A stretch of DNA of 64,000 nt from a virus (lineage: Duplodnaviria > Caudoviricetes): IMG/VR virus record IMGVR_UViG_3300014590_000001, positions 32,001 to 96,000 of that record. One strand, given 5' to 3'. The notes beneath the pieces are model-generated. The model was not told the origin of the DNA. It saw nothing but the letters and a program-made list of their open reading frames with translations, and did no database searches. This document shows positions 14,095 through 16,296 of this stretch, piece by piece. Position numbers and translations under genes: made by a program. Positions within the stretch are counted from its first letter, which is position 1, and each line of letters opens with the position of its first letter.

Positions 14095-14107
14095 AATCTG
14101 TAAATAG
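14095..14107 (+). promoter_or_regulatory. Putative phage promoter AATCTGTAAATAG (copy 1)
   Basis: An identical 13-mer precedes the second non-coding region at 15794. Confidence 0.5.
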
Positions 14108-14111
14108 TAAT

Positions 14112-15330
14112 TATAGGTAGAGCGGAAATTCTATGACTTCTTGTTTCCGTTCTACCATAGAACCCTAGCCAGTTGGATATAAAAACTTTCTGTGAAGAAA
14201 CGATATCTGTAAAGTGGGTAATAACACTGGCAGCCATTCCATGTATAAGGCTCACAAGCCGCTTCCTACCTACAGGGGAATGAGTTAATGCAATCCACCT
14301 CGCTCTGGCGATGCGTTAACTGTTAGCTGACAGCGCGAAAGAATGCCGTTTAAACTTACACTTTCACTGTGAGTTTAAACGGGGAATCTTTCAGAACTCC
14401 CTGTCAATATGACGACAAAGTTTGCAAATGTCTTGCTGCATTTTTCATAAACTATTTTCTACTCTAGCGGATTCGTAACGGGAAGTAGTTTAGCGAACTT
14501 TGGGAATACGATTTAGTGAGTAACATAACATCCGCAGAATGAAGATAGACCCGCCTTAGTCTAGGCTTCGTTCCCTAGTTTGTTTAGACCTGATTCAGTG
14601 GGGAAACGGGAAACGAACTTTGTATAGATTCCGTATAATCATTTTGAAATCTGTAAAGTGATTATACTGGATCACTGTGCTGTTCCGGTGTTCCGGTGGT
14701 GTTGTAGTTGTCGTTCATATCTGCGCCATTGTGTTGTGCTGACTAGCGGTTGGCGAAAGCACTTCACTTAAAGTTTTAAACATTCGCTGAAGTTATCGGT
14801 GTCTCAACCCCCGCAGACCGTGGATAGATTCCTGTTCAGAAAATTTATTTTTAGTTCTCGGATAAATTTTCCCAGCAGCCCTTGCTAGGCCACGTAGAGT
14901 AAGTAGTTTCAAACCTATTTGAAGTTGGGAACGGGGAAACGAAAACTCTTTAGTCAAAAGCTCTTACTGTTGCATGGCTTCTGTCAAAACAAAATCAGAT
15001 CTTCAATTCCATTATTGGATTCGAGTATCCCTAAGCGGTGACTTCCGTATTCGAATCTTGTTAGTAGGAAGTTTAAATGTGGGTGCCTTTAGGTTCCATA
15101 GGATACCGTTCACGGTAAACAAATAACAGCCGCAGACCAAAGATCATGACTGCAATTTATGTTCTCCATAGCATAACTTTTGCGATACTCCTATGAGGCT
15201 TTGTTTTGAAACTTTTTAGACCTGCTTCAGTTGGGAATCGGGAAGAAGTTTCAAATTGTCGGACGAGATTGGAAAGACAACTCGTATTACGTTTTCCTCT
15301 CACATTAGCGTAATACGGGATGACACCAAT
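14112..15330 (+). ncRNA. Large structured non-coding RNA, or an array of ~300-nt RNA units
   Basis: No credible ORF over ~1.2 kb. Many nested stems with G-U pairs. Three copies each of AACnnCCGCAGA and ARACCT-N-AGT(T)GGG(G)AA-N-CGGG(G)AA. Confidence 0.7.
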
Positions 15331-15343
15331 TTGAGGAAACATC

Positions 15344-15601
15344 ATGTCGGGAAAAGATTTGGAATTTCCAAAAGGCGCACAAGGCGTAGTGCGCAAAGTA
15401 AATCCATTGACAACGTTCTTCATGCCTGAACGTTATCGTGATAACCCAGCGAAAGCTAAAGTTGCAGCGCAGTTTCAAACTCTCGCGTATGCTCTTGACC
15501 GCGATATTGAAGACAGCGCAGAAAAGAGTACAGCGATTCGCAAACTGATTGAAGCGCAAGATTGTATTTTCCGCGCAATCGATCTTAATCCTGATTTCTA
15601 A
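15344..15601 (+). CDS. Small helical protein resembling the Acb2/Tad1 hairpin family (putative immune-signal sponge)
   Basis: SD GAGGAAA. Motif FQTLAYALDRDIEDSAEKSTAIRKLIEAQDCIFRAI. Confidence 0.55.
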   Translation: MSGKDLEFPKGAQGVVRKVNPLTTFFMPERYRDNPAKAKVAAQFQTLAYALDRDIEDSAEKSTAIRKLIEAQDCIFRAIDLNPDF

Positions 15602-15602
15602 A

Positions 15603-15776
15603 ATGCGCGAACCGCTCGAATATATTGATGTTGTAGTTGATACTGAGCGTATGAACGAGGCAATTAAATCTCCTTCATATAGTTTTCCACGAAGTTTAAC
15701 TCGCGAAGAAGTTTTGCAGTTTCTCGATGGACGAGCGCCTGTAAAAATTCTTACGCAGGAGAATAAAAATGCGTGA
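15603..15776 (+). CDS. Small hypothetical protein (57 aa)
   Basis: ATG immediately after the upstream stop. Begins MREPLEYIDVVVD. Confidence 0.55.
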   Translation: MREPLEYIDVVVDTERMNEAIKSPSYSFPRSLTREEVLQFLDGRAPVKILTQENKNA

Positions 15777-15793
15777 TTGGTTTTACGGCGGTT

Positions 15794-15806
15794 AATCTGT
15801 AAATAG
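15794..15806 (+). promoter_or_regulatory. Putative phage promoter AATCTGTAAATAG (copy 2)
   Basis: Identical to 14095-14107. Confidence 0.5.
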
Positions 15807-16280
15807 AATTTGTGGTAACACAAATAGGCATAAGGAACTCTGAGAGTGAAAGAACTCTATCTTCTTATGTCGCTACTGATGTGCTTGTGGCAAGCGAGTA
15901 GATCAGGCATTGTAAAACAATGTGCGAGCACACCGGAAACGCTCGCGTCCAGCACTGCCGTGGTGTACGGCTATGCGCACGTTCGGGGGATGTGGGACAG
16001 CGACAAACACTTGCCAAGATGAAAATTTAAATTTGATTGCGGTACTGGCGGGTAACTCCGCTTATTCGGACAAGCAAAATTTCAGACGTGAGATTTTGTG
16101 CCGCCTCCAAATGGCGCGGCGATTCTGTCGGATGCAACACGGCGAACAACTGCTTTTCTTTGCCCAAGCTATATACCGATTGCTGCGCCGTTATTCTATA
16201 GGCTGCGCGTCAAACCTTTTAAAATCCGCATGAAAAATTTGATACGAAAACGGGTGGCCTTTGTGCTGCCCGTTTTTGTT
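15807..16280 (+). ncRNA. Structured ncRNA of about 470 nt
   Basis: Bounded by the promoter-like motif and a terminator. Hairpins include GCGAGC/GCTCGC, GCCGT/ACGGC and GCAAAATTTC/GAGATTTTGT, with long-range GGCAAG/CTTGCC pairing. Confidence 0.6.
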
Positions 16281-16281
16281 T
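16247..16281 (+). terminator. Rho-independent terminator
   Basis: AAAACGGGTGGC-ctttgt-GCTGCCCGTTTTT. Confidence 0.85.
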
Positions 16282-16287
16282 CTGCCA

Positions 16288-16296
16288 CTAATTTAA
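16288..16296 (+). promoter_or_regulatory. Putative late promoter motif CTAATTT(A/T)A
   Basis: CTAATTT lies 30-44 nt upstream of start codons at 9810, 16288, 24181, 38231 and 53375. Confidence 0.45.

Follow-up and report, generated by a model that had tools for sequence, protein, structure and literature searches.

A large modular structured RNA and a companion RNA in the baseplate gene cluster of Enterobacterales jumbo phages

Background

Very large structured RNAs beyond ribosomal RNA are rare, and OLE, GOLLD, ROOL and raiA each opened structural and functional work. GOLLD, ROOL and OLE share with the locus presented here several hundred to more than 1000 nucleotides (nt) of dense covarying structure, a phage-encoded or phage-associated occurrence, discovery by comparative analysis and the lack of a known biochemical function. 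The locus comprises two RNAs, RNA1 (~1.2 kb) and RNA2 (~470 nt), in a 64 kb stretch of phage DNA (the window, 64,000 nt, whose coordinates are used unless genome positions are stated). This stretch represents bases 32001-96000 of a 256,657-bp virus record bearing direct terminal repeats (IMGVR_UViG_3300014590_000001; Caudoviricetes). GOLLD and ROOL are described in a preprint as phage-associated RNAs that form multimers (bioRxiv 10.1101/2024.12.08.627333).

The Rfam models of GOLLD, ROOL and OLE give no match to the locus, and its carriers are jumbo phages of Enterobacterales. While each of those RNAs possesses one fixed fold, one to three internal modules of ~300 nt are present here, at a fixed site between a gene with a KMPT-N domain and a PAAR gene, and with an internal cassette of small open reading frames (ORFs). 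Judged from its sequence, the RNA resembles the giant ornate RNAs in kind and is a member of none of them. It differs from them in its variable-copy modularity, its fixed position in the baseplate cluster and its enclosed small-gene cassette.

The intervals are non-coding, conserved, structured and modular, and are found in at least five phage groups. The family is ancient, has a companion RNA and lies in a transcription unit of its own; there is little doubt that it constitutes a real new family of structured RNA. As a whole, the locus is best explained, at somewhat better than even chances, as one unit that encodes a new large modular RNA, a putative scaffold or sponge.

Conservation and covariation of the non-coding intervals

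A first-pass annotation of the window had described an island in which a repeated AATCTGTAAATAG precedes each of two large structured non-coding RNAs, with genes of 85 and 57 amino acids (aa) between them and a terminator, a CTAATTT motif and a PAAR gene behind. This layout is present. The only exact copies of AATCTGTAAATAG in the window are those at 14095 and 15794; with up to two mismatches, 6 matches are found against 2.1 expected. The non-coding intervals extend over 14092-15343 (1252 nt) and 15777-16317 (541 nt), and their ORFs are short and unconserved.

Among named relatives, the Dickeya solani jumbo phages JA11, JA13, JA29 and JA33 (Salmondvirus) come closest, with ~77-79% nt identity to the island in the alignable parts. 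The close relatives L048, L049, L051, L052 and L053, found through homologues of the 85-aa protein, were aligned, and L041 and L046 were added from a pattern scan of metagenome contigs. Codon periodicity is strong in the upstream flanking gene (chi-square, p = 5e-27) and the downstream flanking genes (p = 1e-13), and is lacking in RNA1 (p = 0.73) and RNA2 (p = 0.37). The flanking genes contain no indels, RNA1 and RNA2 contain dozens, of 1, 2, 4 and 5 nt. A missed coding region was rejected on the absence of periodicity and the frame-breaking indels, and so was a 103-aa GTG ORF at 15922-16233, which matches no family and whose frame is broken by indels in relatives.

RNA2 is 82-96% identical at the nt level among 7 sequences, and 24% of its columns are variable, compared with 34-44% in the flanking genes of overlapping taxa. 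The small proteins between the RNAs are much less conserved (47-49% aa identity to the JA phages). In seven phages of the genus Alexandravirus, the syntenic interval is 71-92% identical, compared with 75-95% for the neighbouring gene. The 5' half of RNA2 is detectable in SNUABM_5 and L046 (nhmmer, E about 1e-3), and RNA2 of the window folds at -167.4 kcal/mol (z = -5.4, 100 shuffles).

Compensatory pairs number 107 of 398 in the Alexandravirus interval (7 sequences, 95% canonical; partner-shift controls 10-25), 26 of 363 in full-length RNA1 (4 sequences, 98.8% canonical; controls 2-4) and 20 of 68 in the RNA1 5' domain (window, JA29, JA13 and L041, 94% canonical; controls 2-5). The last RNA1 module with the leader has 16 of 79 (95.5% canonical; controls 1-6) and RNA2 has 10 of 151 (7 sequences, 97% canonical; controls 0-1). 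These counts are somewhat inflated, as the alifold structures were predicted and scored on the same alignments; the margins are large, and the pairs lie far above the controls in every alignment set. On compensatory pairs and missing codon periodicity, both intervals are real large structured RNAs, as had been proposed, and the check for covariation suggested with that proposal has a positive outcome.

Rfam 15, whose families include GOLLD, ROOL, OLE, HEARO, pRNA, CsrB/RsmB, ToxI, riboswitches and ribozymes, gave no match at gathering thresholds in the whole window; the locus matches no known RNA family, again as the first-pass annotation had it. At E <= 10, the region 13900-16400 yielded only chance-level matches of microRNA or small nucleolar RNA type, far below gathering, and at E <= 1 the homologue of phage AD1 (Alexandravirus) yielded none. 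ARAGORN found no transfer RNA (tRNA) or transfer-messenger RNA gene in the window or in the whole 256.7 kb jumbo phage genome. No paper describing an RNA at this locus was found.

Domains and modules of RNA1

The features of the locus are listed below. Box 1 and box 2 are the conserved elements of the modules, and R2 is a covariance model of the box 2 hairpin, described after the list.

14095-14107, + strand: promoter-like motif AATCTGTAAATAG with core CTGTAAATA at 14098-14106; heads the unit; exact 13-mer twice in the window
14112-14400, + strand: RNA1 5' domain (alifold); helix AGCCAG (14167)/CUGGCA around conserved CUGUAAAGUGGGUAAUAACA; hairpin 14346-14382
14401-14625, + strand: RNA1 module a; box 1 CCGCAGA 14532-14538; box 2 hairpin 14574-14622 (R2 36.4 bits, E = 1e-7)
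14627-14673, + strand: long near-perfect hairpin between modules a and b; inverted repeat I1 with 19 nt arms
14680-14948, + strand: RNA1 module b; box 1 CCGCAGA 14811-14817; box 2 hairpin 14898-14948 (R2 29.7 bits, E = 9.5e-6)
14949-15254, + strand: RNA1 module c; box 1 CCGCAGA 15130-15136; box 2 hairpin 15206-15254 (R2 29.8 bits, E = 8.7e-6)
15255-15343, + strand: RNA1 3' element or leader of the 85-aa gene; contains UUGGAAAGACAAC and hairpin 15278-15322, followed by the ribosome-binding site
15344-15601, + strand: 85-aa protein, weakly Acb2/Tad1-hairpin-like; variable small-gene cassette
15603-15776, + strand: 57-aa protein, an ORF whose sole match is phrog_17259 (E = 0.0013)
15769-15795, + strand: 8-codon mini-ORF MRDWFYGG with strong ribosome-binding site; overlaps the stop of the 57-aa ORF and ends at the second promoter-like motif
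15794-15806, + strand: second AATCTGTAAATAG, exact copy
15812-16285, + strand: RNA2, ~470 nt, multi-helix; minimum free energy z = -5.4; closes with terminator 16244-16282
16288-16294, + strand: CTAATTT, second class of promoter-like motif; precedes the PAAR/baseplate operon
16318-16608: PAAR gene (Pfam PAAR_motif, E = 5e-10)

RNA1 consists of a 5' domain and three modules of ~300 nt. The helix of the 5' domain covaries across genera, reading AGCCAG/CUGGCA in the window and the JA phages, AGCUAG/CUAGCA in L041, AGCCGG/CCGGCA in most Alexandravirus and AGCUGG/CCAGCA in SNUABM_30, and it encloses a conserved CUGUAA(A/U)..GUG(G/A)G motif. Two copies of CTGTAAAGTG, at 14207 and 14651, were considered as promoters and rejected as conserved parts of the RNA: the first belongs to the motif that the covarying helix encloses and is therefore RNA, the second to a hairpin loop. 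Hairpin 14346-14382 folds at -21.5 kcal/mol (z = -6.0) and hairpin 14627-14673 at -20.8 kcal/mol (z = -5.7); the latter is kept in JA29 and JA13 and has CUGUAAAGUG in its loop and 3' arm.

The repeats lie 325 and 307 nt apart, and the modules have only their boxes of ~30 nt in common. Box 1, a short hairpin with the consensus (A/U)AAC-NN-CCGCAGR (positions 14532, 14811 and 15130), is conserved in all genera. The box 2 hairpins, 50-100 nt 3' of box 1, possess a freely varying outer stem and, at its 5' side, an invariant 3-nt bulge (AGA, AAA or AUA). The upper stem comprises 8 bp with one variable mismatch and carries an AGUKGG hexaloop in the Salmondvirus, Yoloswag, Rivsvirus and Yersinia types; in Alexandravirus it is a covarying 3-bp stem (CUC/GAG, CCC/GGG, CCA/UGG) with a 17-nt loop.

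Box 2 was assessed in 18 copies from other phages with a structure specified by hand, which escapes the circularity of the alifold counts. The 9 specified pairs are 90% canonical, compared with 62% when shuffled and 38-48% when the partner is slid, and 8 of them show changes on both sides; the covariation score is 0.77 versus 0.26 shuffled and 0.10-0.17 slid. The model R2, built from these 18 copies with the window sequence excluded, gives exactly 3 significant matches in the window, searched on both strands (next best E = 2.5), and the same 3 RNA1 hairpins only in the whole 256.7 kb genome. By R2, three modules are present in the window, L048, L049 and L053, two in JA29, L041, Yoloswag, SNUABM_5, L046, AD1 and Alexandra, one in JA13, and at least one in the truncated record of Yersinia phage fHe-Yen9-02. 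Interval lengths of 1252, 1003 and 736 nt among the relatives correspond to whole-module differences. A fourth, degenerate module at 14438-14491 was rejected, as R2 gives no match there, and pairing of box 1 with the loop of box 2 in a pseudoknot was rejected for want of consistent complementarity across genera (by eye).

The hairpin of the 3' element, 15278-15322, folds at -19.3 kcal/mol (z = -4.5), and its stem covaries (CUCGUAUUACG/CGUAAUACGGG versus CUUGCAUUACG/CGUAAUGCAGG) in JA29, JA13 and L041. The 3'-element motif is present in SNUABM_5 and L046 as well.

A non-coding, AT-rich stretch that carries inverted repeats and recurrent motifs could mark a DNA-level element (an origin, a packaging site or iterons) or decayed genes or a mobile element, and the record of fHe-Yen9-02 starts within the interval. 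However, all R2 matches, relatives included, lie on the + strand within the syntenic interval, and the compensatory changes keep + strand pairing with many G-U pairs. A promoter-like motif stands at the head of the interval and a terminator at its end, RNA-library contigs cover it, the termini of the genome record are 46 kb away, and conservation like that of coding genes over five genera is unlike decay. With strand-specific covariation that includes G-U pairs and genome termini elsewhere, an element acting as DNA is very unlikely, its probability being close to negligible. The record of fHe-Yen9-02 (L032, OR620964.1 positions 1-660) begins inside the RNA1 homologue, ~85 nt from a box 2 hairpin, and the RNA is thus divided between the two ends of the record; its start point is probably arbitrary.

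Size and ornateness comparable to GOLLD and ROOL, the location inside the baseplate gene cluster in every relative and repeated modules that could give pseudo-symmetry would suit a structural or assembly RNA, either a GOLLD/ROOL-like, RNA-only nanostructure in which modules replace the symmetry of a homo-oligomer, or an RNA of the tail, baseplate or virion, loosely like the pRNA of phi29. In contrast, the models of GOLLD, ROOL, OLE and pRNA find no match, one to three modules among close relatives fit a fixed architecture poorly, and the promoter-like motif differs from the one before the structural operon. Such a role appears highly improbable.

Repeated units that are independently gained and lost typify multivalent RNAs that act as sponges or scaffolds, such as CsrB and RsmB, and RNAs recognised by proteins usually display an invariant bulge and loop while their stem covaries freely. 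The favoured reading, a trans-acting scaffold or sponge, draws on both features. The RNA would act in trans, and its hairpin modules, gained and lost independently, would be multivalent docking sites for a putative phage or host protein; the long perfect hairpins between domains may be processing sites of RNase III type. It is somewhat more likely than not that the RNA functions chiefly as an RNA product and does more than serve as a cis leader; its role as a multivalent protein-binding scaffold or sponge, by analogy with known RNAs, is put forward tentatively and with less than even confidence.

CsrB, RsmB and RsmZ, the model for the proposed sequestration, likewise consist of repeated hairpins with a conserved loop on variable stems and a varying repeat number. 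Their hairpins are ~20 nt long and display GGA, whereas the units here are ~300 nt with two boxes, and the Csr/Rsm families of Rfam are unmatched. GGA is not conserved in the loop of box 2, which is GGGGAAAC/GGGAAUC in the window and UUGGGCGAC in Alexandravirus. ToxI units are 36-nt exact tandem repeats beside the gene of the ToxN endoribonuclease, which are cut to monomers. ToxI and pseudo-ToxI resemble RNA1 as tandemly repeated RNA units, phage-encoded or phage-hijacked, that act by protein binding; they differ in that units here are ~310-325 nt apart with only two short boxes shared, and no ToxN-like protein is found among the neighbouring proteins (Pfam, PHROG). HIV TAR, lambda boxB, the MS2 and PP7 operators and HK022 put share with box 2 an architecture of invariant 3-nt bulge, G-rich hexaloop and covarying stem, and such bulged hairpins are usually recognised by a protein or RNA polymerase. 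The resemblance is one of shape, without sequence relation, and the box 2 hairpins belong to an RNA of 1.2 kb rather than to the 5' end of an mRNA.

The locus in related phages

Directly upstream of RNA1, at 12310-14091, lies the gene of a 593-aa protein in which Pfam PF20294 identifies a KMPT-N domain (E = 1.9e-12). Its homologues occur in 57 phage records (Erwinia 48, Dickeya 8, Yersinia 1), a single phage clade to which the protein is confined and in which the RNA unit is always directly downstream. Gene order is constant in all relatives examined: NUDIX, MmcB-like, dTMP kinase, two hypothetical genes and the long gene-poor interval, followed by the PAAR spike tip and gp25-like and gp6-like baseplate genes. 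A search with the 593-aa protein in viral and metagenome contigs found no related loci, and a 16-mer scan of viral contigs returned the JA phages, chance matches and nothing further.

The syntenic interval of the seven Alexandravirus phages is 1.3-1.45 kb long, with no credible coding sequence (CDS) and no Acb2-like gene alongside. Its order is promoter-like motif, 5' domain, two modules, a hydrophobic ORF of ~50 codons and a structured 3' part, followed by the same terminator, CTAATTT and PAAR. The hydrophobic ORF (MILFFVSLMAIVLLG...) has a ribosome-binding site and is conserved inside the RNA unit; it is located at ~7315-7470 of L034 (AD1) and at the aligned positions of L035-L040, and is annotated in some of these records only. 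The module model R1, built from Alexandravirus only, and an nhmmer profile of the interval did not detect RNA1 of the window; they matched only terminators and, weakly, one box 1, SNUABM_5 and AD1 module 2.

The RNA is the core of the island, as Alexandravirus keeps it without an Acb2-like neighbour. Two RNAs flanking an Acb2/Tad1-like gene, the arrangement from which the first-pass annotation derived its candidate system, are accordingly not a conserved unit; besides Alexandravirus, other relatives carry different small-gene cassettes between the RNAs.

Public annotation of these phages is in need of correction, since several CDSs termed "hypothetical protein" sit inside the RNA. CDSs on the RNA2 homologue or in the conserved RNA interval, some of them on the opposite strand, occur at L033 8163-8357 (pEaSNUABM5_00115), L031 7857-8018 (Yoloswag gp109), L035 5656-5805, L037 5753-5914 and L040 5265-5741, and are probably spurious calls.

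Small-gene cassette

The 85-aa protein matches Pfam PF24729 (Acb2_Tad1_hairpin) with E = 0.019 and 15.6 bits, below the gathering cut-off of 27, and phrog_5120 with E = 3.7e-9. Weak PF24729 matches are found in 3 of 15 members of its family, whose motifs are NP..FF...HL and LPDSAEKS.ALRKLLEAKDC.VRA. The family profile matches Acb2 homolog 43 in the PDB (9ptq) at E = 0.64. A predicted structure (predicted local distance difference test score, pLDDT, 85.6) has no Foldseek match in the PDB at E <= 0.001; its VIA-align comparison with 9ptq gives Z = 5.8, a root-mean-square deviation of 2.1 A over 54 residues and 18% identity, at rank 46 among generic helical hairpins. Similarity to Acb2/Tad1 thus consists in a small helical phage protein with a C-terminal LPDSAEKS..LRKLLEA that resembles the hairpin domain, and in best PDB sequence and fold links that include Acb2 homolog 43; against it, all matches are below threshold and Z = 5.8 is reached among hundreds of helical hairpins. 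The Acb2/Tad1-like character claimed earlier is hence a sub-threshold resemblance, and the link is plausible but unproven.

The Salmondvirus types, Yoloswag, SNUABM_5 and L046 have their gene of the 85-aa family inside the island, and the Alexandravirus homologue lies ~65 kb away. The gene is a passenger of the locus, and the small genes are an exchangeable cassette and not the core. The 57-aa ORF is also called in L048 and L052. The mini-ORF at 15769-15795 has conserved counterparts, MNDWFYGG in the JA phages and MNDWFFDD in Yoloswag, and in L041 the residues DWFFGD form the C-terminus of a membrane-type ORF of ~70 aa; from its sequence, the mini-ORF may represent what is left of a gene, encode a leader peptide or belong to the 5' flank of RNA2.

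An Acb2/Tad1-hairpin-like protein between the RNAs of the window, the JA phages, Yoloswag, SNUABM_5 and L046, together with the weak Acb2 matches, could point to a counter-defence island in which the RNAs are decoys or sponges beside a sponge protein for nucleotide signals. The interval is a hotspot of variable small genes, and a variable module number would suit a decoy under arms-race pressure. Yet the Acb2 assignment stays under every threshold applied and the RNA is conserved where the gene is absent, e.g. in Alexandravirus. Purifying selection on RNA2 (82-96% identity) is strong, unlike that on fast-evolving counter-defence genes, and the Pfam and PHROG matches of the neighbouring genes, the PADLOC library not being scanned, include no defence-related family. 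A counter-defence island is therefore quite unlikely, and a putative scaffold or sponge with passenger genes is retained.

Transcription signals and expression

The core motif CTGTAAATA occurs in 20 copies in the genome and is considered promoter-like because 17 of them precede, by 33-164 nt, an ORF that has a ribosome-binding site. It heads the interval in JA29, JA13, Yoloswag, SNUABM_5, AD1, fHe-Yen9-02, L048, L049 and L053 and is mutated in L041. Fourteen of the 20 copies are on the - strand, mostly before small genes of unknown function. CTAATTT occurs in 19 genome copies, about a dozen of them 25-65 nt upstream of a start codon and several just after a terminator; 15 are on the + strand, before structural operons (e.g. 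window 9810, 16288, 24181, 38231, 53375). From their sequence context, the two motifs look like two promoter classes. An assignment of CTGTAAATA as a T4-type late promoter was withdrawn, since all 10 downstream genes tested lack a known function and the structural operons carry CTAATTT.

The terminator at 16244-16282 has a GC-rich stem of 15 bp (-24 kcal/mol, z = -6.2) followed by UUUUUGUUU; a simple consensus terminator scan did not list it. It belongs to a recurrent family (GGGTGGCC..GCTGCCC and a U-run) with sites at 16244-16294 and ~24135-24187 of the window and at genome positions 215508-215542, 229016-229052, 221163-221203 and 255803-255845. CTAATTT often follows a terminator of this family within ~15 nt and precedes a gene start; since this pairing recurs, terminator and CTAATTT look like a reusable punctuation unit. 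Their succession is also found in Alexandravirus and at ~24135-24187 of the window.

The second AATCTGTAAATAG reads CTGTAAAAT in JA29 and CTGTAAAAA in JA13, and a 10-nt deletion removes it in L048 and L052, to which the window phage is most closely related. RNA2 is consequently not separately promoted in general, and the window phage may have an added internal start. Separate transcription, as proposed in the first-pass annotation, is supported for the island as a whole by its own promoter-like motif and terminator, apart from the CTAATTT of the PAAR operon, and not for RNA2, given the degenerate or deleted motif. As the second AATCTGTAAATAG is not universal, a single unit is the simplest description: a mostly non-coding transcription unit that would start at CTGTAAATA, comprise RNA1, the variable small-ORF cassette and RNA2, and end at the intrinsic terminator, just before the separately promoted PAAR/baseplate operon. 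RNA1 and its companion RNA2, which is even better conserved, would then form the new family of large structured RNA.

The same signals bear on an explanation by cis leaders, in which RNA1 is a giant 5' untranslated region of the small genes and RNA2 with the terminator is an attenuator or a site of processive antitermination into the PAAR operon. RNA1 has no terminator of its own, the conserved covarying hairpin 15278-15322 stands directly before the ribosome-binding site of the 85-aa gene, the RNA2 terminator ends 36 nt ahead of the PAAR start codon, and the closest relatives have no promoter motif for RNA2 alone. However, Alexandravirus retains more than 1 kb of RNA with at most one ORF of ~50 codons within, one to three modules precede homologous genes, no riboswitch family matches in Rfam, and the PAAR operon has its own CTAATTT past the terminator in an arrangement that recurs in the genome. 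A length of 1.2 kb also exceeds by far, to our knowledge, any known bacterial leader. Cis leaders are thus unlikely, though the likeliest of the alternatives, and an RNA acting in trans is preferred.

Many public runs contain 26-46% of the sampled words of the island. Sequence near-identical to that of this phage is found in runs from seed, soil, wastewater, freshwater and food fermentation and in several single-organism runs, a variety which suggests a widespread, plant- or environment-associated host. A plant metatranscriptome lists Salmondvirus among the most abundant viral genera by Kraken2 (PMC12874495), which is compatible with abundant phage RNA and could equally be misassignment.

Contigs of four public runs were mapped onto 11000-20000. 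Those of X1 (seed), X3 and X9 (food-fermentation metatranscriptome) cover ~14123-14348, 14390-14625, 14677-15303 and 15819-16252 at 99-100% identity, and the flanks are scarcely covered; parts without contig cover were not counted as evidence. Contigs start 14-21 nt past the CTGTAAATA motifs, and the RNA2 contig ends within the terminator. Two gaps between contigs match the long hairpins 14346-14382 and 14627-14673, and the contigs of two RNA-library runs stop on both sides of the latter. As a weak hint, this pattern fits stable RNAs, perhaps with processing of RNase III type, or a structure-dependent dropout of complementary DNA.

Interpretation

Besides the partial circularity of the alifold counts, several observations weigh against an autonomous, trans-acting RNA of a single family. 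RNA1 runs into the ribosome-binding site of the 85-aa gene without a terminator, and part of it could therefore be a leader. R2 finds no box 2 hairpin elsewhere in the phage genome that would mark regulated targets, and when 185,579 species genomes were scanned for host look-alikes of the box 2 pattern, 10 matches turned up in unrelated phyla, about the chance level, and none in Enterobacterales. Homology between the RNAs of Salmondvirus type and Alexandravirus type is based on synteny, motif order and covarying helices, with no significant match of sequence or model. The mapped runs were selected because they contain the island, contigs do not reveal transcript ends, and sister runs of the same studies contain a control coding stretch (11890-14091) at similar shares. 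The selection bias and this control stretch limit the RNA-library cover to a weak hint, and its use as proof of discrete abundant transcripts was rejected.

A more speculative version of the scaffold or sponge, of little probability, regards RNA1 as a giant modular effector RNA of a new class in jumbo phages, with each ~300-nt module an independent aptamer-like unit that captures a host immune protein or a small-molecule immune signal, or else as a pseudo-symmetric nanostructure built from RNA only and akin in principle to the cages of GOLLD and ROOL. If true, the phage would run an RNA sponge beside or instead of Acb2/Tad1 protein sponges, with a capacity tuned by gain and loss of modules.

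The interval is a hotspot for small accessory genes. The RNA of ~1.2 kb and its companion of ~470 nt, with their abundant covariation, are carried by cultivated phages whose hosts (Dickeya solani, Erwinia amylovora and Yersinia enterocolitica) are tractable, and the natural variants with one, two and three modules represent a ready-made deletion series. Cultivated phages and natural module variants make the function of this RNA directly testable.

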